Counted from the first letter of the stretch, positions 3,921-33,650 are shown. The stretch is DNA of 64,000 bases from Patescibacteria group bacterium (GCA_041650895.1 JBAZKF010000001.1:509006-573005); one strand, 5' to 3'. Notes: generated by a model not told the origin, from the sequence alone. Numbers and translations are program-made.

Positions 3921-4003
3921 TGCCGAAGGGGAGACTCGAACTCCCACGGGACAAGCCCACATGCTCCTAAGGCATGCGTGTATACCAATTTCACCACTTC
4001 GGC
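3921..4003 (-). tRNA. tRNA-Leu (anticodon UAG)
   Basis: Reverse complement reads GCCGAAGTGGTGAAATTGGTA...CATGC-CTTAGGA-GCATG with a long variable arm (TGGGCTTGTCCCG) and a T-arm GGGAG-TTCGAGT-CTCCC. Type II tRNA with anticodon TAG; CCA is not encoded. Confidence 0.85.
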
Positions 4004-4234
4004 GGAAATTGATTACATTATAGCATTTAAATCAGTAAAAATCAAGTCTCCAATTGAACGACTTGACAAAAAACGCTAAAAAGGTAAAATAATAAATTAA
4101 TTTGCAGTAATCATTATTAAACTTTGGAAATAGCCGATAAAACAATCTATATAATATTGACTCAGATACTGCTTTCAGTTAAACTTCAATTATTCTTAGT
4201 TTTAGTTAAAACCTGACATAAAACACCTAAAAAT

Positions 4235-5326: not shown

Positions 5327-5372
5327 TTTAATGCTTTCAATAATCCATAAAAGACCAGACCAGAAAAGAAAA

Positions 5373-5400
5373 GCCCGGCGACCCGCCGGGACTTTTTCTT
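5373..5400 (+). terminator. rho-independent terminator
   Basis: cccggcg-acc-cgccggg stem followed by a T-run. Confidence 0.6.
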
Positions 5401-5434
5401 TTGGCGGTTTTAATGTTAAAATGAAGTCACTGAT

Positions 5435-6529: not shown

Positions 6530-7005
6530 TAAAAATGTTCAACAAATTAAATTACCTGCGTAGCAACAGAATCACGCAAGTAAAACTGCCCATCTCCGCC
6601 GCGGCTCAAGAATTGTCCGCGGCGCTTTTGGTCGCCACTGATTATAGACAACGGCAAGAACTGGGCGAATCATTGTTGGATGAACTTTGCGATGGGGCCA
6701 ATATGGATATTGTACATTTAACAGTCAACGACGCCAACCAAAAGCATCGCCGACGCAACGGCCGAATTGTTATGAAACGCTACGGCTTATATAAAATCCG
6801 CGACCGCGCCATTCATATAGAAAACCGTACGGCCGCTCGGGGACAAATCATTTCTGCCAAAAGCTTTTTGGATACTTTGCTTCACGAGTGGCTGCACCAC
6901 TACGATACCCTGAAACTCAAACTTAACTCCATACATTCCAAGGGTTTCTACGACCGCTTTAATGATTTGAAAGAGAAGCTCCGCATACCGAAAAAAAACC
7001 GGTAA
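6526..7005 (+). CDS. HExxH zinc metallohydrolase-like protein (YgjP/DUF45-like)
   Basis: LLHEWLHH...HSKGFYDRF resembles the HExxH(x~10)HSxxFW signature of the DUF45/YgjP family. The ATG overlaps the upstream stop as ATGA. Confidence 0.4.
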   Translation: MIKMFNKLNYLRSNRITQVKLPISAAAQELSAALLVATDYRQRQELGESLLDELCDGANMDIVHLTVNDANQKHRRRNGRIVMKRYGLYKIRDRAIHIENRTAARGQIISAKSFLDTLLHEWLHHYDTLKLKLNSIHSKGFYDRFNDLKEKLRIPKKNR

Positions 7006-7174
7006 CGGTTATTTTTTGTTCAATCTTAATATTATACATTTATTCACATTTATTCATAATTAAACGCTTGACGAAACCATTTATATCTGCTATAATTACT
7101 TATTGATTTAAAATGGTTTTAAATCATAACGGACCTTACAAAAACATTAACACCAAAACAAGGAAGGGTAAATC

Positions 7175-10900: not shown

Positions 10901-13900
10901 TCATTCTTCGTTTCCTAGGTCAATCTGAGGAGCGGCGGCAACCGTTACTGTTGTTGATCCATTGCCTATTTGACCCGATCCCGTAGCAGTCAATTCACCG
11001 ATCACCGACATTATCTCCGGATTAGACGGTTCTCCGGCCATGGGATTTGCTGGTTGGATTGTTCCCATACCTTTAGAACCAGCCGTTCCATTTGCTCCCA
11101 AAACGACCGGTGGACCGATAACCCCAGTAACCGACAACGGGGTAGAACTAACAAAAAACGGATCGCTACCGGAAGAGTCAGCTGTTGTTGAGGAGTTATT
11201 TTGTAAAAAAATCGGCGAACTACTGCTTAAAACAATATTCATTTCATCATTAACAACTATATCACCCAAGTCGTCGGTATTATTATCTGAAGTCTCATCA
11301 TCGCTTTTAACCGCCAGAGCATGCCAATTAAATCTCATCTCCTCTGTAAACGGCAGATCGACTGCAACAATAAAGCCGGTGGAGCTTTGCGCTTCTATCC
11401 AATAATCATGCCCGGAAACATTAAGTAAGGGGGTCAGCGTGATTATCGGATCAACATCATAGGGCTTAGCAAAATGAACAGCGGTAGAGGTTGCACCGGC
11501 AGACAACTTAACTGTGCCAGCCGCATCCTTATCCAAATAAATATGATCCTTAAACACCACCTTTGATTCAAATCCTGCTTCGCCGATAACTGTGATGGTA
11601 CCGTAAAAAGTGGCTGAAGAATTTACCGCTAATGAATCCAATACTTCTAAATCATCAAGCGGAGAGTCGTCAACAACTAAGGCCGACTCAGTGCTGGAAG
11701 CGATAATTCCGGATAATTGAGCGGACAGAACCCCAAGTTCTTGCTCCTGACGCTGAGCAACCTGCAATAAATAAAATGGCAGATGGTCGGCGCGATAGCC
11801 CTTGGTTCGGCCGTCATCAAGATATAATTCCGGCAAAGCATCTCTGATTTCTTCGGCGATCAAACCAAAGTCAGTCTGCCCGGTCTGTTTCCAGATAAAC
11901 GATTTGACTTGCAATCCCAATAAAGCGTCGATATTCAAGCTAGTATCAATGATATCATCTTTATACTCTCGAGATGACGGATTAACATTAGTCAAAGTTC
12001 CGTTATTGGAATAAACAGCGCCATTGGTATCTAAGGTGGAAATATTTACGGTTTTAGCTTCAGCATCAAAGGTAACAAAAGGCAGACCGTCATTATAATC
12101 AAGCCATTGATAACTTTTAGCGCTATCAAAAGACAATAACTCAGTTGAGGTAGTAAAATAAATATCCGCAGCCGACGAAAAATCTGAGGCAAAAAAGCTA
12201 ACATGAGCATCACGATTAGTTGAGAAAACTGCGAGATGATCTTTTATACCCACTAAATCCATATCGGATCCAAAAACAGCAGAAGTAGAAGCATGACCGG
12301 AAATCATTGGAACATCCATGAGGCCTTTATTTATATAGAACTTGAGCCCATAATTGCCATCATTTGTGAGTTGGAGCCAATCATTAGGCGATGTAACGGT
12401 TAATTTATGAGTTGGGGTAGTGGTGACAACACCAATGGTCGTAGTAGAATTTAGATTCGTCTCACCGGCAACCTTAAGCCCGCCACTGCCGATTATCACT
12501 CCGAAAAACTTGCCCAAACCGACGGTTATCAAATCCCTTAACACCTGTAAACCGCCAGACACTAACGAGCCAACCCTGGCGGTCGGCGTATCCAATCCCG
12601 GAAGCTTTATAATCACTAACCTATTGGGGCTTACAGACAATGGCAAATAAGCCCTGTTCCCGGAGACTTCCACTCCCCAAGGATTGCCCAAGGTGCTGAT
12701 TGAATCAACAAAATACGGATTATACGGGTCAGAAATGTTAATAATTTTCAAAGCTGCACCCTTATTATCAACAACATAAGCATAATCACCTTGAACCGAT
12801 AAGCCGGTAGATCCTGAAAAATCATTTATATCCTTGTAAAATTCCAACTGAGACCCTCCAACAATTACCGGATTAGTGGAAGAAGAAATGTCAATAATCC
12901 TAAATACCTCGGTAGAAGTGACCCCAATGTCTATAGGCGGTCCAAAGCAGTCATGAGTGGTATAAGCATAACTACCCTTAACAACCACATCCCGGCCTAA
13001 CGGCGGCATATCCAATAAATCACCGCCAACAACAATCGGATTAACCGGATCAGAAATATCAACGATCCTGAATACATTAGTTGAAGTAGCAACATAACTG
13101 ACGGTGTAGGCGTATTTTCCCTGAACATCAATGCCCCGAGTCTCACCGGGGAAATTAGTAACGGGATTACTGATTCTCCTTGGCTTGGAAGGATTAGACA
13201 CATTGATGATTTGCAAACCATCTTCACCGGTTAAGAGACTGGAGTAATAAGCGGTATAAAGCAAACCGTCTATGACTTTTAATTTTCTTAAAGCATAATT
13301 AGCGATATAATCTTCTCCAACCTTTTCCACTGGATTAGTCGGATCGGAAATATCCAAAATAGATAAAGTATTAGTGCTTTGATAAGAGTACTCCTCAAAT
13401 CCGATATAAGCGTATTTCCCATCAATATCAATGCATCTGGCTCCCAAACCGGCACCCGGCCTCAAAGCAAAACTATCATTTACTATAATCGGATTATCAG
13501 GATTGGAAATATCAAAAATTCTTAACTTGTTAGTAGAGGTCGGAGATTGTAATACTACATAGAGATAATCGCCATAAACCATGGAGTTAGATGCCCCGCC
13601 ATGAACTTCTGGCAAAGAAGTAGTAACATAACTTGGAGCTGAATAAAGCAAAGTGGAAGTAGCAATTTTTAGGTTAGAAAGATAAGGCGAAGAAGTCACA
13701 CCGACCAAGCCATTAGTTGCCTGTAAAACTCCGTTTAAACTGCCAATGGTAAGGTCGCCAGAAAGATAAGGCGAAGAAGTCACACCGACCAAGCCATTAG
13801 TAGCTTGCAGGATGCCGTTTAGACTGCCAACGACTAAATTAGTAGTAGTAGTGATTCCCGCTACCTGCAAATCTCCACCAAAGTAATTCTTGCCATTTGT

Positions 13901-16900
13901 AGAGTAAATGGCATAGTTATTGGTTGCTCCCATTGAATCAACGTCGTCAATTCTTAAAGCTGAGTAATCACCTGTAATTGTTCCGCCGTCATTAGTGCTG
14001 ATAATATGCACATTGTCTAATATGCCAGTGAATATTCCGTCATTCTCCAATTCAAAGTTGGCGTTATCAACATAGCCGTTAGTGGATATATTTGAATCAA
14101 CATCAAAAACAGTTCTAAATCTATTAGAATCAGCTACAAGAAACCCAGAATTATTGGCGTAAGTCGTTTCCCAGTTATTACCGTAATAAACTGAAGCATC
14201 ATTAGTTGAAGAAGAGTTAACAGTAACCGAGGAATAAATACTTCCAAGACCAAGACTTAATCCACCGCCAATATCAGCCCAATTATTTTCTTCTACTGTT
14301 CTTACAAAAGCATTTAGACCTCCAAAGATAGAAGCTAATACATTATAAAAAGGAAAGGCACTAATGACTGAACCTGCTCCGACTAACGTCTGGTCGCCTA
14401 CTAATAACTGATTGATAGTGGTAGTGGCCAGAGTGGAAGTTTCCGAAGCTCGGAAACTCTTGGCATAGATACTGGCTGAACTGCTGGCATTGCCATTAAT
14501 TGTTAAGAGAGTGGTGGAAACCGTGCCATAAACATCCAAAGCCGTTTCGGGCAATGATTTACCGATACCCACCTTGCCAGCAAAATAATTTTGAGTGTTG
14601 GAACCTCCCGACCAGATATTGTAATTAAGATTTGATGCTGAAGTGATGCCTTCGGTATAAAAACCATACGCATTCTCTGCTCCATCATTTCCAACATTCC
14701 TTATATTAATACCCTTATAATTTATAGGATGAAAATTTACATCGCTAATAATATCCAAATCAAGTCCGATGGCGTCGGTTACGGTTATTGTCGTATTTGA
14801 GGCATTAATAACATCAAAAAAGTTATTTCTGCCATGAAAGGCAGAAAATTCACTAATCGTCAAAGTCTGGCCACCGTTTGATACCCCCGCCTCTCCATAA
14901 CTGCCCCAGATTTGGTCGACAATTCCAGCTCCGTTGTCATAAACATAATTTCTACTACCAATCAGGCGATTATCGGTTGTTGTTCCGTCATTAATTACTC
15001 CAATTTCAGCTCCGTGAACTCGGTATAAATCACCGTTGAAATCACTGGGTATTCTTGTTGTCATACCCATGGTAGCGACAATTATTGAATCAGTCGGTGT
15101 ATTAAGGTAAGATTCAAATTCAATTTGATGAGAACCGTACTGGTAATAATCCTGGTTGGTAACAACTCTTAAAACCTGATTGCTCCCTTTAAGGGTAGTG
15201 GTTCCATTGACATTCAACCCCCGATCAAAGTTATAATTGGTTGCTCCGGTGATACCAAGTGCCCCAGCATTCGAATTTCCCCAGGGGTCGGTTGAAGTTT
15301 CTTGTATAGTCGCTATGTCATCTAAAATTGAAATCCTATCAGCATACAAATCAGATGTCGTAACTACCCCCACCACCCGTAAATCTCCGCCAAAATAGTT
15401 CTTGCCATTTGTAGAGTAAATGGCATAGTTATTGGTGGCACCCATTAACAGAACATCGTCAATTCTTAATGCCGAGTAATCACCTGTAATTGTTCCGCCG
15501 TCATTAGTATTAATAATATGCACATTGTCTAATCTGCCAGTGAATATTCCGTCATTCTCTAACTCAAAATTGACGTTATCAATATAACCGTTAGTAGATA
15601 TATTGGAGCCTGCATCAAAGAGTGTTTTGAATCTGTTAGAGTCGGCAACCGTAAACCCAGAATTATTGGCGTAAGTCGTTTCCCAGTTATTACCGTAATA
15701 AATTGAACTATCGTTAGTTGAAGAAGAATTGACATTGACTGAAGAGTAAACACTGCCAAGACCGATGCTAGTACCACCCCCATAATCAAGCCAGCTGCTT
15801 TCTTCTATGTTGTTTAATAAACCGGTTATACCGCCAAAAAGCGAAGAAAATAAATTATATAATGCTGAAACACTAAATGCCGAACCTGCTCCGACTAACG
15901 TCTGGTCGCCTGATAACAATCGATTGATGGTAGTAGTAGCCAGAGTAGAAGTGCCGGAAACGGATAATTCCCCGGTCAAGTCCAAACCGGCAAAAGTCGG
16001 GGTATTGGTTGTATCCAGCCATTGGTCAAAAGGGTTCTTGGCTGTAGCCACTAAATAAGAAGCGTCAAAATTGCTTTGGAACCCCGCCCACGTCGTCGTA
16101 GTGTTCCAAAAATACTGTTCGGAAGTGGTAGACCATCTAATTTGCTGAGTCTCCCAATAATCAGCAGATGTAGTGGAAAAAAAGTTGGTTATTGACTTCC
16201 AATAGTCACTGGAACTGGTAGACCAATTGCCGGCTAAAGTGGAAATATCCGACCAATCATTGATATAAACTCCATTCAAACCGGCGACGGTCCCCAAGTA
16301 AGAAGAGTTAGTGGTCGTGGCTGATCCGGTCACCGAAAGATTGCCATTAATGGTAGTAGCGGCTAATTGGGTATTGCCCAAAACACCTAGATTACCGGTA
16401 GTAGTAACGTGATTATCAAAGTAATAGCCGCCGGAGGCGTTTTCAAAAATCAATCTATCAGTGGAAGAATTCAAGTAAATATCAGAAGTAGTGACACTAT
16501 TGGCACTAAAAGTCAGTTTAGGATTCTGGGATATAGAAACATTAATTAGGTTACCACTAGCTAAAGAAATTTTTTCAAAGTCCTTGGCCGCGCCGACACT
16601 GTTATTAGAAACAAAAATCAAATGTTGAGTGGTGGTCTGGTAGCCTATTGTGGCTATACTATCATTATCATAAGAGCCAAATAATATCATGGGACTTTGA
16701 TCGGGCTGAGTATTCCAAATATAGGACGAGTCTTTAAAGCCAAAAACGTCAGTCAGAATAACGTTGGTGCCACTAGCAAAAGCCCCTGACGGGATGGTAT
16801 AACCGTAGATTTTGCCTTGAACAGTATCATTAAAAAAGGAAAAGGTGGTTGTTGCCAGGGTAGTAATACCCTGAGAAGCAAAACTTTCAGTAGAAGTTGC

Positions 16901-17806
16901 CCGAGTTGCGGTCAAATCTGTGATACTGGCAATGGTGGCGACCAAATTAGTGAATAAACCGGAGATAGCATTAAAGACGGAAGTGTAAAAATCAGTCGTG
17001 GTGGCTTGAGTTATAGAAGCGTAAGTAGAAAACAAATTAGTGGAAGTAGCATTTATCGCCAAGGTGGAGGAGGCGCTTAAATTCTTGATATTGGCAGTTG
17101 AAGTAACCGATAAATCGGTAACAGCCAAAGTACCGCCTGTCGCATCACCAAAAACCAAAGTAGAAATATTGGCTATAGTAGCCGTTAAACTACTGATAAT
17201 GGAAGATATGGCGCTAAGAGCCGCGGCGAAAAAATTAGTGCTGGTGGCATTAGTAATTGAGGCGTTGCTGGCAAAAAAATTGGTGGAAGTCAAATTAGTT
17301 ATGGTGGCGCGATCATTAGCCATGTCCGCCCTTAAAAAAGAGGTGGTAGCCAAGCCGTCAAATTCCAAGGTGTTAAGGGCGTTCGGCACAGCGCCCAGAC
17401 GTTTTCTGGGGGTAAGGGTTTCCCCGTCAACGGCTACTTCTAAATATATGTCTTGATTAAAATCCACCGAAGACAAAGAAGTAACCGACCCTAACATAAC
17501 TGAAAACAAACCATTGGCAACCGCCACTTGATCAGCGCCGGTTCGCGTTTCCGTCCAAAGCACCGAAGAACAAGATGAATCGGCACATAATCTAAACACC
17601 ATATCGTAATCACCATCAGCCACTGGACTATCGCTATGGTCAGTTAGCTTGCCTTGATAATTTATTTGCTGATTAAATGAAGCATTGGCTTGGGAGACAA
17701 CAAAAAACAGGGAAAACACAGCAAAACAAGCCATGATAACCCTAATCATCAGGTACTTAAAAGAATTTTGGTGTGTTTTTGTCACCATGCCAAAATGTTT
17801 ACGCAT
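10901..17806 (-). CDS. giant secreted/surface protein (2301 aa) with LVIVD-type beta-propeller repeats and a tail-fibre-like intramolecular chaperone (Peptidase_S74-like) motif
   Basis: N-terminal signal/TM segment (MACFAVFSLFFVVSQANA). Thr/Ser/Asn-rich beta-type sequence with internal duplications. Repeated G[KD]YAY...ID(I)SxPxNP units, and an SSREYKDDI...GLIAEEIRDALPELY motif. Confidence 0.75.
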   Translation of the reverse strand: MRKHFGMVTKTHQNSFKYLMIRVIMACFAVFSLFFVVSQANASFNQQINYQGKLTDHSDSPVADGDYDMVFRLCADSSCSSVLWTETRTGADQVAVANGLFSVMLGSVTSLSSVDFNQDIYLEVAVDGETLTPRKRLGAVPNALNTLEFDGLATTSFLRADMANDRATITNLTSTNFFASNASITNATSTNFFAAALSAISSIISSLTATIANISTLVFGDATGGTLAVTDLSVTSTANIKNLSASSTLAINATSTNLFSTYASITQATTTDFYTSVFNAISGLFTNLVATIASITDLTATRATSTESFASQGITTLATTTFSFFNDTVQGKIYGYTIPSGAFASGTNVILTDVFGFKDSSYIWNTQPDQSPMILFGSYDNDSIATIGYQTTTQHLIFVSNNSVGAAKDFEKISLASGNLINVSISQNPKLTFSANSVTTSDIYLNSSTDRLIFENASGGYYFDNHVTTTGNLGVLGNTQLAATTINGNLSVTGSATTTNSSYLGTVAGLNGVYINDWSDISTLAGNWSTSSSDYWKSITNFFSTTSADYWETQQIRWSTTSEQYFWNTTTTWAGFQSNFDASYLVATAKNPFDQWLDTTNTPTFAGLDLTGELSVSGTSTLATTTINRLLSGDQTLVGAGSAFSVSALYNLFSSLFGGITGLLNNIEESSWLDYGGGTSIGLGSVYSSVNVNSSSTNDSSIYYGNNWETTYANNSGFTVADSNRFKTLFDAGSNISTNGYIDNVNFELENDGIFTGRLDNVHIINTNDGGTITGDYSALRIDDVLLMGATNNYAIYSTNGKNYFGGDLRVVGVVTTSDLYADRISILDDIATIQETSTDPWGNSNAGALGITGATNYNFDRGLNVNGTTTLKGSNQVLRVVTNQDYYQYGSHQIEFESYLNTPTDSIIVATMGMTTRIPSDFNGDLYRVHGAEIGVINDGTTTDNRLIGSRNYVYDNGAGIVDQIWGSYGEAGVSNGGQTLTISEFSAFHGRNNFFDVINASNTTITVTDAIGLDLDIISDVNFHPINYKGINIRNVGNDGAENAYGFYTEGITSASNLNYNIWSGGSNTQNYFAGKVGIGKSLPETALDVYGTVSTTLLTINGNASSSASIYAKSFRASETSTLATTTINQLLVGDQTLVGAGSVISAFPFYNVLASIFGGLNAFVRTVEENNWADIGGGLSLGLGSIYSSVTVNSSSTNDASVYYGNNWETTYANNSGFLVADSNRFRTVFDVDSNISTNGYVDNANFELENDGIFTGILDNVHIISTNDGGTITGDYSALRIDDVDSMGATNNYAIYSTNGKNYFGGDLQVAGITTTTNLVVGSLNGILQATNGLVGVTSSPYLSGDLTIGSLNGVLQATNGLVGVTSSPYLSNLKIATSTLLYSAPSYVTTSLPEVHGGASNSMVYGDYLYVVLQSPTSTNKLRIFDISNPDNPIIVNDSFALRPGAGLGARCIDIDGKYAYIGFEEYSYQSTNTLSILDISDPTNPVEKVGEDYIANYALRKLKVIDGLLYTAYYSSLLTGEDGLQIINVSNPSKPRRISNPVTNFPGETRGIDVQGKYAYTVSYVATSTNVFRIVDISDPVNPIVVGGDLLDMPPLGRDVVVKGSYAYTTHDCFGPPIDIGVTSTEVFRIIDISSSTNPVIVGGSQLEFYKDINDFSGSTGLSVQGDYAYVVDNKGAALKIINISDPYNPYFVDSISTLGNPWGVEVSGNRAYLPLSVSPNRLVIIKLPGLDTPTARVGSLVSGGLQVLRDLITVGLGKFFGVIIGSGGLKVAGETNLNSTTTIGVVTTTPTHKLTVTSPNDWLQLTNDGNYGLKFYINKGLMDVPMISGHASTSAVFGSDMDLVGIKDHLAVFSTNRDAHVSFFASDFSSAADIYFTTSTELLSFDSAKSYQWLDYNDGLPFVTFDAEAKTVNISTLDTNGAVYSNNGTLTNVNPSSREYKDDIIDTSLNIDALLGLQVKSFIWKQTGQTDFGLIAEEIRDALPELYLDDGRTKGYRADHLPFYLLQVAQRQEQELGVLSAQLSGIIASSTESALVVDDSPLDDLEVLDSLAVNSSATFYGTITVIGEAGFESKVVFKDHIYLDKDAAGTVKLSAGATSTAVHFAKPYDVDPIITLTPLLNVSGHDYWIEAQSSTGFIVAVDLPFTEEMRFNWHALAVKSDDETSDNNTDDLGDIVVNDEMNIVLSSSSPIFLQNNSSTTADSSGSDPFFVSSTPLSVTGVIGPPVVLGANGTAGSKGMGTIQPANPMAGEPSNPEIMSVIGELTATGSGQIGNGSTTVTVAAAPQIDLGNEE
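11800..11980 (-). other. Peptidase_S74 / intramolecular chaperone auto-processing-like motif inside the giant protein
   Basis: SSREYKDDIIDT...FGLIAEEIRDALPELY matches the SD(R/K)xLKxNI ... GxIAQEV..xxPExV signature of endosialidase/tail-spike C-terminal chaperone domains. Confidence 0.5.
12560..13650 (-). repeat. LVIVD-like beta-propeller repeat region (protein level)
   Basis: At least six blades: GKYAYIG/ILDISDPTNP, GKYAYTVS/IVDISDPVNP, GSYAYTTHD/IIDISSSTNP, GDYAYVVDN/INISDPYNP, GNRAYLPL. Confidence 0.5.
13676..13838 (-). repeat. in-frame tandem duplication, 2 x ~84 bp (28 aa: IGSLNGvLQATNGLVGVTSSPYLS..)
   Basis: agaaagataaggcgaagaagtcacaccgaccaagccattagt... occurs twice back to back with a few substitutions. 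Confidence 0.7.
13861..14470 (-). repeat. intragenic ~610-bp direct repeat, copy 2
   Basis: About 85-90% nt identity to 15364-15990 by eye. Encodes TSTLATTTINQLLVGDQTLVGAGS...YAIYSTNGKNYFGGDL. Confidence 0.65.
15364..15990 (-). repeat. intragenic ~610-bp direct repeat, copy 1
   Basis: Encodes SVSGTSTLATTTINRLLSGDQTLVGAGS...YAIYSTNGKNYFGGDL. Paralogous to 13861-14470, about 0.9 kb away in the same ORF. Confidence 0.65.
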
Positions 17807-25360: not shown

Positions 25361-25394
25361 GAGCCGTAACTCACGCGAGTTACGGCTCTTTATT
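25361..25394. terminator. bidirectional terminator (glyA / nadE convergent)
   Basis: gagccgtaactc-acgc-gagttacggctc 12-bp stem followed by tttatt. Confidence 0.7.
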
Positions 25395-25472: not shown

Positions 25473-27563
25473 TTACGCTTTTTCTGCAGCTAACGCTTTA
25501 GCCATATCATCAAGAAATTTACGCCAGCTGCTGGGGAAAGCCATATCCGAGGGCAAACGCAAATCAGCCCGGGGACTGGCGGATAATGTTCCCACTTTGG
25601 GTCCGTTAGGACTGGCATCGCGTTTGAACTGATTTTTCAACAACTGATGTAAAAAAGTTTCCAACCACTTAAGTAAATCTTCTGGTTCATAAACACCCTT
25701 AAAAGCTTCACAAACCAACTGAAATAAACGTCTCGGCGAATTGCCGGCGCGAATAAAATGATACATATCAAAATCAAGCGCCGGATATTGACCGATTATT
25801 TCTTCCGTAATTTGAGAGATATGTATTCCATCTGACTTAACCAACTCAGCCGAGGCTTCTTTGTCTAAGATATGATAGATGATTGACGAAACTTCGGGGC
25901 CGAATAACTGCTTATCGGCAATCCATTTCAACAACTTATTAACCAAAGTTTTGGGGATGCCGCAATTGGGGTTGTACATGCTCATCTGATCACCGTTATA
26001 GGTGCAATAACCCAAAATGCTTTCCGACAAATTGCCGGTACCGATAGTAAAGCCCAAATCCATGACAGTCTGCGTTCGTTCGCGCGCCTGAGCATTCTCG
26101 CATTGCAGACAATTCCAGCAGGGCTCATGGCCAATAGCGCGCAAATGAGCGGTAACTTGTTCTTCAATCCCGACTTCCTTAAAGGTCGCGCCTAAGGCGT
26201 TAATCAAGTCAACGGCATCCTGGTAGGTTCCAGTAGGTCCGAAGGTCGTCCCTGGTCCAGGCATGGTTACGGCTGTGATTTTTTTCATATCCCAACCGCC
26301 GTAACGGCAAGCCAAAGCCAAATTAAGAAAAGCTAAGGTTGAATCGCGACCGCCGGAAATGGCAATCGCCGCCTTAAGCTTCTCCGGGTCAGGGAAGACT
26401 CGCCGCAACCGCTCAAACAAACCGATTGACGCGATTATGAGAATGCGTTCGCAACGTTTATCCAGAGTATCGGGATCACCGGGCACAAACGGATAGGAAT
26501 CGATTTTCCTCAGCCAATTCTTATCACCGCAAATACTCAATAAATCAATGGGCACCGTCCGCGCCTTATGCTTCCAACCCCTTAGCGTATTAGAATTACT
26601 CTTATTGCGCAAACGCTCGTTATTTAAACGATGAATATCCACATCTGCTACCAATAATTCAGCTTCTTCTGCCTTATATTGTCCGCCAAACAGCGGATTG
26701 CTGTTGCCGGAATTAAACGGTTGGCGTTCCGCCAGAATACTGCCGTTCTCGGCAATCAGGCAGTGCCCGCCAAAAACCGTTTCAGCGGTGGACTCGCCTT
26801 GGCCGGCCGAGCAATAAATATAAGCGCAGACCGAATTGCCGGAAATCGCCTTAGCCAAAATATCACACCGATAATCCTCCTTGCCCACCAATTCATTAGA
26901 GGCCGACAAATTAAAAATAATATTAGCTCCGTTATCGGCATGAAACAGCGAGGGTCGCAAATTAGCCCAGCTATCCTCACAAATTTCCCCGGCTAACACG
27001 CCCAAACAACCCCCCCCGGACGTAAGCAAAGGAAAAATCAAATCGTTGCCTATAGGCACAAGGGCAGTTTTATCACCCCAAGCTGTAGGCATGGAGATTT
27101 CCGTGTCATCACCCAACAAGGAAGCTGAATTAAACCAACGATTTTCGTAAAATTCACCGTAATTCGGTAAGAACGTTTTGGCAATCACCCCTATAACTCG
27201 CCCATAATGGCAAACCGCCGCCACATTAAACAGCTTATCTTGAAAATACACAGGCAAACCGATAAGACTGATCAAATTAAATTCGGATGTTGCTGTCAGA
27301 TAAATCTGTAATGCCTTCAGGGCATCGCTAAGCAGTCCGGCATTAAGGAAACCGTCACCCAAAGAATATCCTGTCAAATTCAATTCCGGAAAACACAGCA
27401 CATCAACGTGTCGCGCGATCGCCTGATGAGCGTAAGAAACGGCGATTTGGGAATTCTTTATCGCATCGCCGATAAACACCCTGGGTACAGCCGTAGCGAC
27501 GCGCAAAAACCCCATTTGCCGATGATCCAATTTCAAACTAAGAGGCAAGTTTCTTACTGGCAT
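25473..27563 (-). CDS. nadE: glutamine-dependent NAD+ synthetase (CN-hydrolase + synthetase domains)
   Basis: N-terminal nitrilase-like domain (CFPELNLTGY, catalytic C in EICED) and a C-terminal SGGRDS P-loop. The 696 aa length matches the long NadE type. Confidence 0.9.
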   Translation of the reverse strand: MPVRNLPLSLKLDHRQMGFLRVATAVPRVFIGDAIKNSQIAVSYAHQAIARHVDVLCFPELNLTGYSLGDGFLNAGLLSDALKALQIYLTATSEFNLISLIGLPVYFQDKLFNVAAVCHYGRVIGVIAKTFLPNYGEFYENRWFNSASLLGDDTEISMPTAWGDKTALVPIGNDLIFPLLTSGGGCLGVLAGEICEDSWANLRPSLFHADNGANIIFNLSASNELVGKEDYRCDILAKAISGNSVCAYIYCSAGQGESTAETVFGGHCLIAENGSILAERQPFNSGNSNPLFGGQYKAEEAELLVADVDIHRLNNERLRNKSNSNTLRGWKHKARTVPIDLLSICGDKNWLRKIDSYPFVPGDPDTLDKRCERILIIASIGLFERLRRVFPDPEKLKAAIAISGGRDSTLAFLNLALACRYGGWDMKKITAVTMPGPGTTFGPTGTYQDAVDLINALGATFKEVGIEEQVTAHLRAIGHEPCWNCLQCENAQARERTQTVMDLGFTIGTGNLSESILGYCTYNGDQMSMYNPNCGIPKTLVNKLLKWIADKQLFGPEVSSIIYHILDKEASAELVKSDGIHISQITEEIIGQYPALDFDMYHFIRAGNSPRRLFQLVCEAFKGVYEPEDLLKWLETFLHQLLKNQFKRDASPNGPKVGTLSASPRADLRLPSDMAFPSSWRKFLDDMAKALAAEKA

Positions 27564-27582
27564 TCTTTTATTCTCCTTCCAC

Positions 27583-28515
27583 TCAAAATTCTTCTTTCAA
27601 GATTATTTCTACTATCGGATTGCATAACGATTTGATAAAAACGAAATCCGACCCGATCAGCAGTTTAATGGCCGCGGGACAGGAGTCTGTGGTGTAAAGA
27701 CGGTTAATCAATCCTTGTTCGTGAGCTTCAACCAGCCTGCTAACGGCTTGGGCATTAACAGCGGCGTGAGGCACGACCAGATTGATCGTTGCCGCTCCCT
27801 GGGATTCCAAAATCTTGGCACATTCAATCAAAGTGCCTCCAGTCCGAGTCAAATCATCAACAATCAATATATTCCGCCCTTGCACTTCGCCCTCTTTTAT
27901 GGTGACGATGCGCTTATCGTCTTGCCTAATCTTCTGGCAAGTGATTTGCCGAAAATTACCCAATGTCTTGCCGAAACGCTTTTGCGCCCCCTCGTCGGGA
28001 AATGCCACTGACCAATCATAAAAGTTTTTTGATAGATAGGGAATGGCTGATTGCAAGAAAATCAAAACATTATCGGAAAAATAAAATTCCTCGCGCAAAT
28101 CATGAATGTCAAAAATAAAAATCCGGGGTGTTCCGGCATTGCCCGGTATAGCGTCAAACATTCGAGCCAAACTCTTGGCCGTAACAATGTCGCCGGGGCT
28201 CATTTTCCGTTCCATGGTGCCGGTGGGGTAAAAAGGTAAAACCACGTTGAGTGACCTGGCGCCATAGCGCGGCAAAGCCCATAAAACGGAAAACTGGCGG
28301 AAAATTTCCAGCGGATTTTCCAAGGAAGCAAAAAACCAAACGTGTTTGTTTTTCACCGCTTCAGCGTCTATGGACGTATCGGGGAAACCATCGGGAAACT
28401 CACCCCACCTGATGGGAGAATACCCAACCGGATAATGCTCAAGGGCTTTTGCTACAGCACAAGCGAACCCTTCCATGATCGGACAACTCAAAATAACAAT
28501 ATTTTTAGTAGGCAT
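27583..28515 (-). CDS. prs: ribose-phosphate pyrophosphokinase (PRPP synthetase)
   Basis: NILIVDDLTRTGGTL PRPP-binding motif and an FSVLWALPRYGARSLNVVLPFYP N-domain. Confidence 0.7.
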   Translation of the reverse strand: MPTKNIVILSCPIMEGFACAVAKALEHYPVGYSPIRWGEFPDGFPDTSIDAEAVKNKHVWFFASLENPLEIFRQFSVLWALPRYGARSLNVVLPFYPTGTMERKMSPGDIVTAKSLARMFDAIPGNAGTPRIFIFDIHDLREEFYFSDNVLIFLQSAIPYLSKNFYDWSVAFPDEGAQKRFGKTLGNFRQITCQKIRQDDKRIVTIKEGEVQGRNILIVDDLTRTGGTLIECAKILESQGAATINLVVPHAAVNAQAVSRLVEAHEQGLINRLYTTDSCPAAIKLLIGSDFVFIKSLCNPIVEIILKEEF

Positions 28516-28680
28516 GGTTTCTATTCCTTTCTGGTTGCGTTGTTACTGCTCACATTAAGTTGTAATGTTCTCAGACTTTCTAAGAACAATCAATTTTTAA
28601 TTGCTCTAGTGAAAGGCAGAGGCGAAGCAAATCGCCTCTGCGTAAAATTAACTCAATCTAACTAATAGCGCCTATTGCCT

Positions 28681-29463
28681 TTAGAATAAAACCTCGGGGA
28701 AAATGGTATCGTCGTCTTCTGGCAGATAATACAAATTCGAACAAGCGCTGGATCGTCCTGCAACTAACTCCGCGCCCTTGATCTGATTTTCCTCTGGCAC
28801 ATACACTTGCGGGCGAATCAGCCAAATCGGCTTATGTTTGGCAAAAAAATTATTATAAAGCACCCGGCAACCGCGCAACTCATTACCCGCCCTTTTTCGC
28901 AAATGATACCAATACTGAAAAGCTTTGGTCTGCCAAATATGCAACGGCACCTGGCATTCGCCGCCAGTTCTTAAAGCGCCTCGGCCCAACATGCCCAAAG
29001 CCAACTCAATGGTCTTTTTCAAAGTATTCGCCGTAGGAATTTTATATTTTACCGCTTTCTCTAACAAATACTTCATGCGGGCGGCATTTTCAGGCGCGCC
29101 CAAAACAACTTTGCCCGATTTCATCCACTCGCCAAATTCCACGTTGGTGGTCAAGGCCGGCATATGTTTAAGCTCTCGCGGTATCCAGAACAGGATTACA
29201 TCGGCGCGATTGAGCCCCTCGTCTTCCCAATCGATTTGAGCCTGACGATTGACGTCTTTGCGGAAACCGCCGCCTTTCTTTTCCGGATCGTAAACCGTGC
29301 CGGAAAAACCTAATGACTCCAGAATGGCGAAAGCGCCGAATTTCCAAGACAACCCCTTCTCGTCTCGCGGGATTGGTCCGGCCAAAAACACCGACTTAAT
29401 CACCTGCTCAGGAAACGATTCTTGGCCGTGCACGATAGTAAAACCGTATTTTTCAGACATCAA
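28681..29463 (-). CDS. nucleoside 2-deoxyribosyltransferase-like (N-glycosidase fold) protein with extra C-terminal domain
   Basis: SVFLAGPI..., DWEDEGLNRADVILFWI and TTNVEFGEWM resemble the NDT/Rcl signatures (FLAGP...D..ADxVVA...GTAFExG). About 110 further residues are of unknown fold. Confidence 0.45.
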   Translation of the reverse strand: MMSEKYGFTIVHGQESFPEQVIKSVFLAGPIPRDEKGLSWKFGAFAILESLGFSGTVYDPEKKGGGFRKDVNRQAQIDWEDEGLNRADVILFWIPRELKHMPALTTNVEFGEWMKSGKVVLGAPENAARMKYLLEKAVKYKIPTANTLKKTIELALGMLGRGALRTGGECQVPLHIWQTKAFQYWYHLRKRAGNELRGCRVLYNNFFAKHKPIWLIRPQVYVPEENQIKGAELVAGRSSACSNLYYLPEDDDTIFPEVLF

Positions 29464-30024
29464 TTATTTCTCCTCTTCGGTCGATGGCGAAAACTGCTGA
29501 TACTGATTAGCCAGAGCCAGCAAATCACTGTCGGAATAGATTGTTCTAATGATTTTCTCCCACTCATTACGCGATTTGGGCAGACACCAAGGGCAGACAG
29601 AACGCCGCCAAACATAATAAGGAGTAATCTGCCCCGTAAACGGATCTTGGCGCGTGTAATGAATAACCTGGCAATTATGGATACGATCAAGCGGATCTCT
29701 GGAACCGTCCAATTCAACATATTGAAAAGGAGTAAGCCGTTCTAGACGAACTATAAAACACCACATCACTTCACCATGATTAACCACGACTACGTTACTC
29801 TCCGAACATTCGCGATGGAACGTCCCCAAAACCCGATCAGCTCGCATACAGGCATTAGCCATGGATTCTCCGCCAAGAGGCGACCAATAAAAACCATTGC
29901 CATTGCGATTAAGTAGAATCGGACCATACTTCTCACGCCGTTCATCATCAGGCAAAACACTTAATTCTCCCCATTCACGCTCGCGCAGATTATAGTCTAT
30001 TTTCCAATGGCCGTTTAAACCCAA
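29464..30024 (-). pseudogene. histidine-phosphatase (PGAM) family-like ORF lacking the N-terminal RHG region; possible remnant or non-ATG start
   Basis: SPLGGESMANACMRADRV and VVVVNHGEVMWCF match PGAM-family middle and C-terminal motifs. The ORF starts at TTG, and the in-frame upstream 150 nt has no ATG and no RHG motif. Confidence 0.3.
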
Positions 30025-30299
30025 TAAAGCAGCGGACTCGCCGGCGCCAAACTGGGAGCAGTCGGAGCCGAATACCTTAGCGGGAAAAAAGGTTGGGGAG
30101 AAAAAATTAACACTGAAAAATATATTATTGATCAGGAGGCAGAGGCTAATGATATTTTTGAAAGATTCAAAGAGTTAGAATCAGAAAAAACAAATTCATC
30201 GGCATAGGCATGATCTATTCCTCCTTATTGTTAGATTGATTTTAAAGTGCTGCTTCCTTCAAACCAAGACGCCTACTAAGTAAGCGGCTCAGGCAAAGG

Positions 30300-30332
30300 G
30301 CGGAACTGTCAAAATTTTTGACAGTTCCGCCG
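30300..30332. terminator. perfect 16-bp-stem palindrome 3' of pncB (no U-tract)
   Basis: ggcggaactgtcaaaa-t-ttttgacagttccgcc. Confidence 0.4.
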
Positions 30333-30362
30333 GTTAAAATTAAAAAGTGCTTTTACGACGAC

Positions 30363-31994
30363 CTACGACAATACCGGGATTGGCGCTTCCGAAGCCATCA
30401 GTAAGTGCATCTGCTGATAAACCCTTTCAGTCACCGCCACCTTGAAAGGCGTTGGATTTTCCGGCCGCAGATGGTCTTCGCGCATTTCCATTTCAAACTG
30501 CTGCCTGATATACGCTTGAACGGCCAAAACGCCTGGGGCAAGAGAATCAAAACGTCGGCCATTAAAAAACACGAGCTGATGCAATTCCTTACAAGTGGCC
30601 GGCTTAACTTTGCAACGAACCGTCTCATTGATCGGATCGCGGCAAAGAATCTCATTAGACGCGCGGATCGACTGGAGCACTTCATCATATTCTTCATCAG
30701 CCACCAAAAGATCTAAAATGGCTTTCCCGTCCGCGCCATACAAACGAATCGCTCGTTTGGCGCCGGGAATCGTCATCTTGTCGATATTCATTGACAGTTT
30801 AATGACCGGGCGATTGCCGATCTGCACCAGCTTATACACGCCGCCCAGAGCAGGACAATTTGCCAAGCGGGTACCGATGCCAAAATGGGTGATGTGATGC
30901 TTCTGTCTGCGAAAACTCCATAAAATGGCTTCGTCAATATCATTAGACACTACAATCGCCTGTTTGGTGAAGTCACAATGTGCGGCTGGCCGATATTTCT
31001 TAATAAGCTCATAACCGCCGTAAACAATATTGGACAGATATGCCAAGTCGCCGGAATCCAGACGAACACCCAACGGGGTGTAACCGCATTCAGCCAAAGC
31101 CAGGGCGACCGCCAGATAATTGGGCAAACCCGAAGTCTCCACGTTATACGTGTCAATTAAAGCCAAAAACCTATCGGGATTAGCCCAGGCGTAATCAATG
31201 AATGCCGCCAATTCTCCCTGATTGGTTTCGCTGGGAAAATAACCCTTTAAGCAATCCTGGCGATCTAGGGCAAGGACGGTAAAGTTATAAGTACGCTTTC
31301 CGTCCTTAGTGGTTAATATTCTTTGGCATTTCAAGTCTTCCGCTGAATAGCTGGTAACAAAGGAATGAGCGTGCGTTCCGCCGACCGGCAAATGATGAAG
31401 CAAACCAGCCAAAACATTGGAGGTGGAATCAAATCCGCCCATCACCGCATAATGCGAAGCGGAAATGGCGCCGTCCGGACCGGGGGCCCGGCGCAGAGCG
31501 AATTCCATCAATGTCGCCTCCCAACCGGCCGCATAACGCATGCGCGCCGCGTTCGTAATAATTTGTGTCGGATAATTCGTCGAGTTCAGAAGGGTCGTTT
31601 CAATCAATTGAGCCACGCAGACCGGTCCCGCCACACTCACTAACGGCTCTCGTGGAAACACCAAAGTCCCTTCTTCCGGCGCCCACACTTTGATTTTCAT
31701 CTTCAATGAATTGAACCAGTCAAAAAATTCCGGTTCATAGTGACTGCAAACGGGCAAACTCTTCAGATAACTGATTTCTTCCGGCGTCAAATAAAACTCG
31801 GACAAATAATCAAGAATGCGGCCCAAACCGGCAAATACGGCGTATTGGCCGCCAAATGGAGCGGTGCGGTAAAACAGATCAAACACCGCATACCGTTCTT
31901 CCCGGCTGGTTTTCCAATACGTGTAGAGCATGGAAATCTGATAAAAATCGGTCAAAAGCGGGGAAATTCTTAATGGCGATCCTTGTTCATTCAT
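30363..31994 (-). CDS. pncB: nicotinate phosphoribosyltransferase, long (eukaryote-like) form
   Basis: N-terminal LLTDFYQISM (the PncB TDxYQxTM motif), 543 aa. Confidence 0.75.
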   Translation of the reverse strand: MNEQGSPLRISPLLTDFYQISMLYTYWKTSREERYAVFDLFYRTAPFGGQYAVFAGLGRILDYLSEFYLTPEEISYLKSLPVCSHYEPEFFDWFNSLKMKIKVWAPEEGTLVFPREPLVSVAGPVCVAQLIETTLLNSTNYPTQIITNAARMRYAAGWEATLMEFALRRAPGPDGAISASHYAVMGGFDSTSNVLAGLLHHLPVGGTHAHSFVTSYSAEDLKCQRILTTKDGKRTYNFTVLALDRQDCLKGYFPSETNQGELAAFIDYAWANPDRFLALIDTYNVETSGLPNYLAVALALAECGYTPLGVRLDSGDLAYLSNIVYGGYELIKKYRPAAHCDFTKQAIVVSNDIDEAILWSFRRQKHHITHFGIGTRLANCPALGGVYKLVQIGNRPVIKLSMNIDKMTIPGAKRAIRLYGADGKAILDLLVADEEYDEVLQSIRASNEILCRDPINETVRCKVKPATCKELHQLVFFNGRRFDSLAPGVLAVQAYIRQQFEMEMREDHLRPENPTPFKVAVTERVYQQMHLLMASEAPIPVLS

Positions 31995-32665
31995 TACTCA
32001 TTCTCCTTTTCTGCTGTTAATTGCGGATAGATTTTCAGCATAAACCATTGCACCAAAGTAAAAGTTTTCAAGTCGGGATAAGGCATACAACTCAATTCCT
32101 TAATGGAGATCCAACGAACTTCCGTACTTTCCCCTTCCGCGTCTAAACCAAAACTCGTCCGGCTGTGATCAAATTCATCATCATTGAACTTACCATAACC
32201 CAAATGAAGGCGCTCGGTAATAATTCCCGGCGAGGTGAAAAGAGGAGTGCCGAAATTAATCAACTCAAAACGCCCGGCGACTGTCTCCAAGTCAACCAAT
32301 AAGCCCAACTCTTCCCGAGCTTCACGAGCCATTGCCCAGACCACCGTTTCGCCTTGATCAATGTGGCCGGCTGGAACCTCCAGTATGGGCGCAATATGAT
32401 TCGTGGCAAATATTGTTGCCGGACGATCTTGCATAACCATAGCTACGGCGCGCCGATCGCGATTGTAAACCAGAAACGCCACGGCGTCTTTCTTTTCCAC
32501 AACCTCCTGCTTTCTCCCGGTACCACGCCAGACCCTGATCCAACCATTATAAACCAAATCATAGGCCTCACTCAAAACGCTCTTCACTCCGCTTTGATCG
32601 CTGTTGCCATTGTCCATAATTTGTTCTCCTTCTTTTGTTCGGTTAATGTTTCTATTGCTAATCAA
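31994..32665 (-). CDS. NUDIX hydrolase
   Basis: Nudix box GHIDQGETVVWAMAREAREELGL (Gx5Ex7REUxEExGU). Overlaps nadD and pncB at their start and stop codons. Confidence 0.75.
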   Translation of the reverse strand: MISNRNINRTKEGEQIMDNGNSDQSGVKSVLSEAYDLVYNGWIRVWRGTGRKQEVVEKKDAVAFLVYNRDRRAVAMVMQDRPATIFATNHIAPILEVPAGHIDQGETVVWAMAREAREELGLLVDLETVAGRFELINFGTPLFTSPGIITERLHLGYGKFNDDEFDHSRTSFGLDAEGESTEVRWISIKELSCMPYPDLKTFTLVQWFMLKIYPQLTAEKENE

Positions 32666-33360
32666 ATTTGATAACCGTAAAGTCCGTTAATCTTGATATA
32701 CTTGGCGATGTTGGGAGGAACTGACTTCTCCCAATCACAACAATTCCCGGCAATTGAAGCGCGAATTTGCGACGAAGAAATATCTATTCCCGTATTCAAT
32801 GAAGCTATTTTAAATTGCCAAGGCAGTGGCAAGTCGCCTAATTCATAACCGGGCCGGGGATAAACCAGCCAATGCCATCTCTGGCAGGCAAACAGCCATT
32901 CGCCTCGCTTCCAACGCGCTTGAATCTCATTCAAACCGCCGAACTCCGGACGCGGTATTACCGAGTCTGAGCCGGTCAGCCAAGTCAGCTTAGCTTGCGG
33001 ATATTTTCTTACCAAAAGTTCCAGCCAATCTATAGTCGCCGTATTACGGCCGAAGATATCATCATACCAGACTTGAAAATTAATCGGACTGCTTGACATT
33101 TGACGAAAATCATTAACCATCATCTCGGTCATGGCAATCCTGTGATTAATACAATCGGAACAGAACCCTGCCGAGCTGTCGGCGCACTTTGTGCAAACCG
33201 CCAAATGCTTATCCGGCCGTTCACCGCAAGGAATCCAAATCATCAAGTCATAATCAGCTTTTCTTTCACCTCGCAAGACATCAGCCAAAATAGCCTGATG
33301 CCCGTAGTGGGGCGGATTAGCAGAACTGCCACCGATAATTATGCTTTTGGGATTTAGCAT
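32662..33360 (-). CDS. nadD: nicotinate/nicotinamide mononucleotide adenylyltransferase with Cys4 insertion
   Basis: GGSSANPPHYGHQ matches the (H/T)xGH cytidylyltransferase motif of NadD/NadM. Insert: CGERPDKHLAVCTKCADSSAGFCSDC. Confidence 0.75.
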   Translation of the reverse strand: MLNPKSIIIGGSSANPPHYGHQAILADVLRGERKADYDLMIWIPCGERPDKHLAVCTKCADSSAGFCSDCINHRIAMTEMMVNDFRQMSSSPINFQVWYDDIFGRNTATIDWLELLVRKYPQAKLTWLTGSDSVIPRPEFGGLNEIQARWKRGEWLFACQRWHWLVYPRPGYELGDLPLPWQFKIASLNTGIDISSSQIRASIAGNCCDWEKSVPPNIAKYIKINGLYGYQI

Positions 33361-33619
33361 CGCTATCTCCTTCTTTAGCCCGTCAAGACCTTACGTAGAC
33401 GGGTTGTTTCTAAGATTTAAAGTGCCAGTCTCCGACTATTACGAGTCAGAAACGAAAAACAGCGTTCATCTTAATCATCTTAATCAACGCTAATTTTCAA
33501 ATTTATCTAATTTTAGACAAAAAACTAATCATAAAGGCAATCACGAACATTACGGTTAATATCATCAATAGATAACTGCCTAATTTATCACAAATTAAGC
33601 CAAAAGTCAAGTTTTAAGC

Positions 33620-33650
33620 AAAAACTAAAAAGGCCCAAAATTGGGGCCTC
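33620..33650 (-). terminator. terminator for DHH-like gene
   Basis: aggccc-caaaatt-gggcct hairpin. On the minus strand it is followed by ttttagttttt. Confidence 0.45.

Follow-up and report, generated by a model that had tools for sequence, protein, structure and literature searches.

The window analysed here is a 64,000-nucleotide stretch of DNA from a Patescibacteria group bacterium (GCA_041650895.1 JBAZKF010000001.1:509006-573005), and the system in question lies at positions 25473-33360. Seven open reading frames (ORFs), every one on the minus strand and co-directional, make up a genuine operon for the salvage and recycling of nicotinamide adenine dinucleotide (NAD) in a groundwater bacterium of the Patescibacteria (Candidate Phyla Radiation, CPR), related to Candidatus Buchananbacteria. 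All seven NAD salvage genes listed by an initial annotation are present, with assignments backed by profile searches. The core of the operon belongs to a type already known from NAD salvage clusters. What is new is a lead to the function of a fusion family, represented here by a protein with the fold of nucleoside 2-deoxyribosyltransferase (NDT), together with reductive decay and an RNA motif upstream of the genes.

Genes were assigned by Pfam and NCBIfam profile scans with curated cutoffs or gathering scores (GA) as thresholds (Table 1). As predicted from these profiles, a Preiss-Handler core of PncB, NadD and NadE, with a dedicated ribose-phosphate pyrophosphokinase (Prs) and a Nudix hydrolase of the ADP-ribose type, is well supported. 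PncB matches both domains of the nicotinate phosphoribosyltransferases (NAPRTases), with 115 bits for the N-terminal PF17767 and 84 bits for the C-terminal PF17956. Its residues 10-538 align end to end with human NAPRT (4YUB; 353 bits), whereas the match to the Enterococcus faecalis enzyme is split in two and scores 249 bits, in line with its initial description as long and eukaryote-like. NadD carries the nucleotidyltransferase motifs GGSSANPPHYGH (HxGH) and DISSSQIR (ISSxxxR), kept across 11 aligned NadD sequences; it scores below the TIGR00482 equivalog cutoff and belongs to a divergent subgroup of Patescibacteria proteins with an insert of 15 residues. The four cysteines noted initially are real (C56-x2-C59-x7-C67-x2-C70, residues 56-70, ~33195..33151), are confined within the 11-sequence alignment to the window protein and those of its two sister genomes (loci L007 and L008), and probably form a zinc knuckle. 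The ratio of nonsynonymous to synonymous substitution rates (dN/dS) for nadD is 0.07-0.14.

The stand-alone Nudix protein has an intact Nudix box, GHIDQGETVVWAMAREAREELGL (pattern GX5EX7REUXEEXGU), and its nearest solved relatives are NudK and the ADP-ribose pyrophosphatases (ADPRases); it scores 49 bits against the YffH/AdpP subfamily, under the cutoff of 79.55. The Prs-like protein narrowly misses the TIGR01251 cutoff with a full-length match. It contains the Pribosyltran_N and Pribosyltran domains and the ribose-5-phosphate loop VDDLTRTGGT, matches phrog_619 with 93 bits, and has archaeal and Bacillus subtilis Prs as its closest solved structures.

Several genes are closely packed: nudix and pncB overlap by 1 nt (TAATG), hisP and the NDT-fold gene are 3 nt apart, and prs and nadE are separated by 19 nt. 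The overlap of start and stop codons described initially thus holds at nudix/pncB, but is doubtful at nadD/nudix, since the Nudix start is most likely ATG 32617, behind a GAAGGAG Shine-Dalgarno sequence, whereas the mechanical ORF opens at TTG 32665. Two longer spacers, between pncB and hisP and between the NDT-fold gene and prs (165 nt), contain hairpins. The terminator-like hairpin between the convergent nadE and glyA genes marks the 3' end of the operon.

Table 1. Features of the NAD operon and copies of its leader motif at other loci. Positions refer to the window unless preceded by a locus number (L).
Feature	Position	Strand	Evidence
Promoter-like site, TTGACT-17 nt-TG-extended TAAATT	33582..33610	-	scan; predicted
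Structured nadD 5' leader	33361..33535	-	RNAalifold; minimum free energy (MFE) z-score -3.5
nadD-like nicotinate-nucleotide adenylyltransferase, 232 aa	32662..33360	-	TIGR00482 70.2 bits, cutoff 112.45
Stand-alone Nudix hydrolase, ADP-ribose/NDP-sugar pyrophosphatase type, 207 aa	31994..32617	-	PF00293 50 bits (threshold 21)
pncB, nicotinate phosphoribosyltransferase, long form, 543 aa	30363..31994	-	TIGR01513 421 bits, cutoff 297.4
pncB-hisP spacer, weak second copy of the leader motif	30209..30356	-	covariance model R2 18 bits, E 0.0022 within 8.5 kb
hisP, histidine-phosphatase (His_Phos_1) pseudogene	29464..30211 (ORF 30024..29464)	-	PF00300 47 bits
NDT-fold protein, 259 aa	28681..29460	-	PF15891 51.7 bits, GA 30
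NDT-prs spacer	28516..28680	-	9-bp hairpin 28640..28617
Divergent ribose-phosphate pyrophosphokinase (Prs) paralogue, 310 aa	27583..28515	-	TIGR01251 109.5 bits, cutoff 113
Glutamine-dependent NAD synthetase NadE, 696 aa	25473..27563	-	NF002730 597 bits, cutoff 473; CN_hydrolase and NAD_synthase domains
Bidirectional terminator-like hairpin, 12 bp, 7 GC	25361..25388	.	between convergent nadE and glyA; T-runs on both strands
Motif copies, L010 and L013	L010:3089-3222, 5614-5831; L013:2724-2868, 4234-4354, 5266-5434		covariance models
Motif copies, L009 and L087	L009:3530-3647; L087:9145-9332, 11792-11929		covariance models
Motif copies, L088 and L090	L088:7599-7708, 6452-6585; L090:5080-5225, 5659-5801, 6868-7006		covariance models

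The operon was compared with those of two sister genomes, a Patescibacteria metagenome-assembled genome (MAG; L003/L008, 73% identity in the NDT-fold protein) and a Candidatus Buchananbacteria MAG (L007, 86%). Both share the gene order from nadD to prs and the flanking genes queA, DHH-family gene, glyA and rsmE; nadE is also in place in L003/L008 and is absent from the L007 operon. Pairwise dN/dS values of 0.07-0.38 indicate purifying selection on all operon genes. Since the order is common to both sisters, the two odd ORFs, hisP and the NDT-fold gene, are conserved members of the operon and not the unrelated insertions that the initial annotation had allowed for; both assignments also pass profile searches and fold tests. 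Additionally, both families recur in distant Patescibacteria NAD clusters. At the nadE position, L007 carries a 310-aa hypothetical protein (L007:9915-10847) with an N-terminal hydrophobic stretch seen by eye.

We corrected the start of the NDT-fold protein to ATG 29460, so that the ORF initially given as 28681-29463 is present with a shifted start; an identical 259-aa protein, encoded on a 958-kb contig of a Patescibacteria MAG, is deposited at NCBI as MFA5124693.1. The protein passes both the PF15891 model and a fold test, and its nearest characterised structural relatives are NDTs and the hydrolase MilB. Against the model of true NDTs (PF05014, EC 2.4.2.6) it scores 13.7 bits, below the GA of 28.8, and we therefore call it an NDT-fold protein rather than an NDT. 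An N-glycosidase-like domain spans residues ~20-140, followed at ~147-235 by a helical linker and a beta-subdomain. E108, in the sequence TTNVEFG, is invariant in 60 sequences and lies at the start of helix 103-112, following strand 88-92; judged by position, this motif may correspond to that of the glutamate nucleophile in NDT and DNPH1.

A database search returned 593 homologues, and among the matches listed nearly all are ~385 aa long, match 92% of the query and extend C-terminally to include a Nudix-type helix with the ExxEE pattern. Alignments of the window protein with this family cover ~92% of its length, with identities of 40-49% and E values from 1e-52 to 1e-67. The predicted structure of one full-length member (P0005) has a predicted local distance difference test (pLDDT) score of 93, and its C-terminal 200 residues superpose on the ADP-ribose diphosphatase of Klebsiella (NudF, 9B1Z) over 203/203 residues (Foldseek, E 3.5e-12), as well as on Escherichia coli NudF (1G0S), NudK and human NUDT5. 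The full-length C-terminus thus covers the whole of these enzymes, including their beta-subdomain, and the full-length family matches the YffH/AdpP model with 31 bits. Its Nudix box is non-canonical, with ExxEE kept and the preceding arginine not conserved.

The window protein is a truncated member of this NDT-like-Nudix fusion family, without the Nudix core. It keeps the family-invariant residues G161, R164, W176, F181, W184, N193 and R236, and of the NudF-type enzymes it retains the beta-subdomain only; the separate Nudix of the operon belongs to the group of these enzymes. The orthologues in L007 and L008 share the same truncation, and all stop after the N-terminal beta-subdomain of the ADPRase. 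The initial annotation of an NDT-fold protein with an extra domain was correct as to fold and profile, but the extra domain brings no added function: it is the helical linker and N-terminal beta-subdomain stump of a lost ADPRase module. Selection agrees with this interpretation, with dN/dS values of 0.07-0.16 in the N domain, which keeps every family-invariant residue including E108, a relaxed 0.39-0.51 in residues 141-235, and ~1 or above in the tail. A tblastn search of the NDT-prs spacer with eight fusion C-termini detected no remnant of the Nudix core (best E 0.17). An origin of the separate Nudix gene by fission was also considered and found unsupported, as hhalign matched the protein to the fusion Nudix region at E 1e-6, a match no stronger than that to NudK (2e-7).

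Among known NDT-fold nucleotide N-glycosidases, DNPH1/Rcl, MilB/BlsM and, more distantly, LOG/PpnN invite comparison; the window protein differs from them in matching PF15891 and not PF05014, and in a conserved C-terminal extension of 100 residues, with an ADPRase besides in the full family. Parabacteroides distasonis BDI_0649 (4MCJ) and B. subtilis YtoQ (8OF6), unlike the window protein, are single-domain proteins of ~150 aa; we found no link of either to NAD genes, and the papers found on YtoQ give no function.

The family occurs in 511 species in a scan of one genome per species, with many Patescibacteria, Myxococcota and Planctomycetota, and some Actinomycetes; it is also encoded by a small number of jumbo phages, among them Bacillus phage G (gp334). 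Neighbouring genes were analysed at the best 80 of the 511 loci by crude ORF calling, BLAST clustering and annotation of cluster representatives. A core NAD gene lies within 8 kb at 19 of 40 Patescibacteria loci, compared with 2 of 34 non-CPR loci, an association far beyond chance for genomes of ~1 Mb. Across the 80 loci, the neighbours include NAPRTase (short form at 14 loci, long form at five), NadD/NadK (18), NadE (13), PncA (13), the regulator NrtR (9), Prs (7), ADP-ribosylglycohydrolase (7) and NadA (5). A histidine phosphatase is found at nine of the 80, often directly adjacent, and occurs also where no NAD genes are nearby. Full-text literature searches returned no description of the fusion family or of the Patescibacteria NAD clusters; the NAD-ADPr survey PMC9503650 makes no use of the term NDT, and its section on ARG-centred systems describes no such fusion. 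PADLOC models for defence systems gave no match to the NDT-like or phosphatase proteins, and the neighbourhood of phage G gp334 is uninformative on a role in defence.

Further genes recur in these neighbourhoods. A MoaA/viperin-like radical SAM protein is encoded at 10 of the 80 loci (including L010:10129-11091 and L014:181-1074), and it often directly adjoins the NDT-like-Nudix and histidine-phosphatase genes, which may point to a trio of nucleotide-modifying enzymes. At three Patescibacteria loci (L016:6841-7845, L045:13882-14901 and L076:5814-6800) a gene for an ATP-dependent DNA ligase lies in or beside the NAD cluster. Two other families found in NAD clusters (L010:4595-5617 and L013:4325-5272; L009:1488-2549 and 3611-4663) have no Pfam or NCBIfam match; one, of 315-340 aa, has a degenerate Nudix-like box (GGHLDIKGYHLETAAEALIHEAKDEVGL), and the other, of 350 aa, a nicotinamidase-like IDxQxxF motif.

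The second odd ORF had been described as a truncated histidine phosphatase. The family assignment stands, with a match to PF00300, but the gene is a pseudogene in which the catalytic motif is deleted and the frame broken. The ORF covers profile positions 70-163 of 194 only. Intact 271-aa orthologues (PF00300 92 bits), which begin MSMPKNLFLVRHGESELNQ and carry the catalytic LVRHGESE, are present in L003, L004, L005 and L007. In the window, the original Shine-Dalgarno sequence, ATG 30211 and ~9 codons survive, and a stop codon is reached at 30169..30167. Residues ~10-69 (~60 codons, including the catalytic RHG) have been swapped for ~105 nt of unrelated DNA (~30183..30079); homology restarts at orthologue residue 70 (tblastn), and the remainder, 30078..29464, lies in another frame. 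Inactivation by segment replacement means that hisP is dispensable in this genome.

Misassembly was ruled out as the source of this lesion, since two independent assemblies, L001 and L002 (Logan SRR8542065 and JGI 3300037067), have the identical 3' junction. Both contigs stop inside the foreign segment, so the locus may be heterogeneous or contain a repeat. The segment (30079-30183) occurs once in the window, and exact-pattern scans of metagenome contigs found no donor for it. Read on the plus strand, it is an open frame rich in glycine (SSGLAGAKLGAVGAEYLSGKKGWGEK...; SSGLAGAKLGAVGAEYLSGKKGWGEKINTEKYIIDQEAEANDIFERFKELESEK) that lacks a start codon.

Upstream of nadD, the promoter-like site comes just after the terminator hairpin (33650..33630) of the preceding DHH-family gene. 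The window, L007 and L008 share the block AAAACTTGACTTTTGGCTTAATTTGTGATAAATTAGG almost unchanged between diverging flanks, and the site is predicted to act as the operon promoter. The 215-nt leader between promoter and nadD is conserved in the sisters, with hairpins that carry compensatory changes. It contains a palindrome, TCTAA-NN-TTAGA (~33517..33506), then a core of two hairpins (33501..33410) with GCACUUUAAAUCUU at its end, and another hairpin ahead of the Shine-Dalgarno sequence, with which the leader's tail is predicted to be able to pair. In the core of the motif, UAGAAAA and UUUUCU flank a variable hairpin; a second hairpin (CUYRAC...GUYRAGG) and AAGYUCUUUAMA follow, and then comes the Shine-Dalgarno sequence.

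A first covariance model of the leader found homologues directly upstream of nadD in one Falkowbacteria and one Parcubacteria genome whose NadD is only ~41% identical. A second model added copies that precede nadK, a Nudix-like gene and a PncA-like gene; at further loci, copies precede nadK, hisP, nadD and a radical-SAM gene. In all, eight Patescibacteria genomes have the two-hairpin motif (33410-33535 in the window) immediately ahead of NAD-metabolism genes; it was not found at L089, a nadD locus without an NAD cluster. An independent MAFFT and RNAalifold alignment of 14 instances recovered both helices, with double (compensatory) changes at 16 of 22 pairs. Cells of the motif are paired in 92.5% of cases, compared with 41-53% when the partners are slid by 1-3 columns. 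In 500 shuffles the observed value was unreached for four of five measures, and one shuffle reached it for the fifth, 'further pair types'. Against Rfam 15, including the NAD+ riboswitch classes, the leader had no match at E<=1 except chance ones to snoRNA and freshwater-2 models, far under gathering scores. The two-hairpin motif, which covaries strongly, is a candidate for a new cis-regulatory RNA and may be a riboswitch, a protein-binding leader or another kind of element. The operon appears to be expressed from one conserved promoter and governed by the structured leader. To our knowledge, few regulatory RNAs have been described from the Patescibacteria.

The weak second copy of the motif, in the pncB-hisP spacer, comprises a perfect 15-bp hairpin (30330..30298), a hairpin at 30286..30270, AGCACUUUAAAA and an AAGGAGG Shine-Dalgarno sequence. 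It is kept in L003/L004 with stem-preserving changes and has a homologous match upstream of hisP in L087. Its position argues that hisP and the NDT-fold gene are regulated like the NAD genes. The leader palindrome, in turn, keeps its sequence in five nadD leaders (those of the window, L007, L008, L010 and L013) and shows no covariation there. It may serve as an operator bound by protein instead of forming an RNA helix. Its sequence departs from the GT-N7-AC core published for NrtR operators. The idea that the RNA motif and NrtR strictly replace each other, which had seemed to hold in the first 80 loci, was also discarded, as L087 and L088 have both.

The initial annotation's comparison with NAD clusters containing prs and Nudix genes was apt. 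NrtR-type clusters (pncA-pncB-nadD-nadE; prs-nadV) share with the window the Preiss-Handler genes, a dedicated prs and an ADP-ribose-type Nudix; a route from ADP-ribose through ribose-5-phosphate and phosphoribosyl pyrophosphate (PRPP) to NAD, with private prs paralogues in NAD regulons, has been described for them (Rodionov et al. 2008, PMC2330246). The same logic would apply here, and related Patescibacteria clusters carry NrtR. The window, in contrast, has neither NrtR nor pncA, adds the NDT-fold and histidine-phosphatase genes, and has a structured RNA leader in place of an obvious NrtR operator. The NadM-Nudix, NadV and Prs systems of Francisella and Synechocystis likewise bring together an adenylyltransferase, an ADPRase, a phosphoribosyltransferase and Prs. 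Here, however, the deamidated route (PncB, NadD and NadE) replaces NadV/NadM, the Nudix is separate, and the wider family fuses its ADPRase to an NDT-like domain instead of an adenylyltransferase. Phage NARP1 and NARP2 are similarly compact operons that rebuild NAD from breakdown products through Prs-like and phosphoribosyltransferase enzymes, whereas the window cluster is chromosomal, conserved, set in a housekeeping context and uses NAPRTase, NadD and NadE. In phage NAD reconstitution an accessory phosphatase, a macro domain, can prepare the ADP-ribose derivative; that of the operon is a histidine phosphatase, dead here.

On balance, we favour a reading in which Preiss-Handler salvage is coupled to the recycling of ribose-5-phosphate from ADP-ribose and nucleotides into PRPP, with the NDT-fold protein acting as a nucleotide N-glycosidase on AMP or NMN. 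In the well-supported core, PncB would convert nicotinate and PRPP to nicotinate mononucleotide (NaMN), NadD would convert NaMN to nicotinate adenine dinucleotide (NaAD), and NadE would amidate NaAD to NAD, with the dedicated Prs paralogue supplying PRPP. The Nudix enzyme would cleave ADP-ribose arising from NAD consumption to AMP and ribose-5-phosphate, which Prs would return to PRPP. The NDT-fold protein would act most likely on AMP, or alternatively on nicotinamide mononucleotide (NMN), releasing the free base and ribose-5-phosphate, from which Prs would again make PRPP for PncB. With AMP as substrate the products would be adenine and ribose-5-phosphate, and each ADP-ribose would yield two ribose-5-phosphates; in the alternative, NMN or NAD would give nicotinamide and a ribose-phosphate product. 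The ancestor of the NDT-fold protein was an enzyme of two domains, NDT-like and ADPRase, of a type regularly encoded in Patescibacteria NAD clusters; the core of the ADPRase was deleted in this lineage, where the separate Nudix may supply the activity. The fusion to an ADPRase and the linkage to Prs and NAPRTase make the NDT-fold protein, most economically, an N-glycosidase acting on a product of the pathway.

The strongest alternative, which we nevertheless regard as unlikely, is that the NDT-fold protein is an NMN nucleosidase or NAD glycohydrolase, which splits nicotinamide from ribose and so closes a pyridine nucleotide cycle, from NAD to NMN or ADP-ribose plus nicotinamide, and on through nicotinate, NaMN and NaAD back to NAD. 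PncA at 11 and PncB at 17 of the 40 CPR loci, frequently adjacent, would suit such a cycle, and the fused ADPRase could then process the ADP-ribose product. We found no pncA in the operon or in the 64-kb window, however, which would leave released nicotinamide without a local route into PncB and mildly favours the supply of ribose phosphate. Moreover, the conserved glutamate appears to sit in an NDT/DNPH1-type and not a TIR-type motif, and an NAD-destroying enzyme within an NAD-building operon would need special regulation.

It is less probable still that both odd ORFs are functionless, decaying leftovers in an operon reduced by evolution to nadD-nudix-pncB-prs-nadE. That hisP is demonstrably dead, that the NDT-fold gene has no Nudix core, that its residues 141-235 and tail (dN/dS at least 1) are under weak constraint and that the L007 cluster has lost nadE too all speak for decay. 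Against this, constraint on the NDT-fold N domain holds across three species with all family-invariant residues kept, the ORF is intact in the three with a good Shine-Dalgarno sequence, and the truncation predates their split, yet the gene is still retained.

The initial annotation had suggested a base- or nucleoside-exchange step feeding pyridine salvage. The NDT-fold protein would then be a true transferase of bases or (deoxy)ribosyl groups, swapping, for example, the nicotinamide of a riboside or ribotide for nicotinate. The covalent ribosyl-enzyme chemistry established for NDT permits transfer as well as hydrolysis, and the window protein has the fold and the retained putative nucleophile. 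We found no specific support for exchange and consider it very unlikely: the protein misses the transferase model PF05014, its nearest characterised structural relatives include the hydrolase MilB besides NDTs, the operon is already complete from nicotinate onward, and its partners, the fused ADPRase, Prs and NAPRTase, fit release of ribose-5-phosphate better. Hydrolysis is the more likely activity.

We give scarcely any credence to a scheme after phage NARP1, in which the Prs-like protein and PncB, like Adps and Namat, would pyrophosphorylate ADP-ribose and join it to nicotinate as NaAD for amidation by NadE: the Prs-like protein is divergent and just under the Prs cutoff, Adps proteins are homologous to Prs and carry its annotation (bioRxiv 10.1101/2024.02.11.579819) and nadE lies directly downstream, but 97% of Adps genes adjoin a NAMPT-family Namat (same source), whereas here the Prs-like gene has no NAMPT-family transferase (PF04095 and PF18127) beside it and the NAPRTase is canonical, high-scoring and non-adjacent, NadD and an ADP-ribose-degrading Nudix imply an NaMN intermediate and ADP-ribose hydrolysis, and the protein shares ~26% identity with Prs/Adps homologues of phages, no phage relative closer than these having been found.

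Several observations count against ribose-5-phosphate recycling through an NDT-fold N-glycosidase. The closest PF15891 structure, 4MCJ, belongs to a protein deposited as uncharacterised, and the sequence leaves AMP, NMN, NAD and deoxynucleotides all possible as substrates. NadD and Prs score under their curated cutoffs, and the internal hairpins may divide the seven genes into three transcripts. The family also occurs outside any NAD context in Myxococcota, Actinomycetes, Planctomycetota and jumbo phages, so that a broader role is possible. Finally, a tblastn survey of the 80 loci detected a stand-alone ADPRase-like Nudix only in L007 and L008, where the truncated form occurs, which hints that the separate Nudix compensates for the lost fusion domain; other CPR clusters with a complete fusion, however, hold extra Nudix-like genes (c46, NrtR), and hhalign showed no special kinship, which makes this argument weak.

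Elsewhere in the window, positions 10901-17806 on the minus strand hold a 2301-aa ORF and, after it, one of 910 aa that faintly matches CarboxypepD_reg.

With their very small genomes, Patescibacteria are commonly considered to rely on scavenging for nucleotides and cofactors, so that maintenance of NAD and PRPP is central to their lifestyle. As a wider conjecture, which we advance tentatively and hold to be possible rather than probable, the NDT-like-Nudix protein would be the missing N-glycosidase (an NMN or AMP nucleosidase) of a Patescibacteria NAD/ADP-ribose cycle, in which the breakdown products of NAD would be turned entirely into free base and ribose-5-phosphate, and whose NAD genes, those of this operon among them, would be switched by a two-hairpin, riboswitch-like RNA sensing an NAD-related metabolite. 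The operon provides a concrete functional lead for a family that occurs in jumbo phages and in no fewer than 511 species representatives. It also captures reductive evolution within one lineage, in which a fused enzyme was cut to one domain and a partner gene was killed by a segment swap. Furthermore, the covarying RNA upstream of NAD genes may represent a new class of regulatory RNA.

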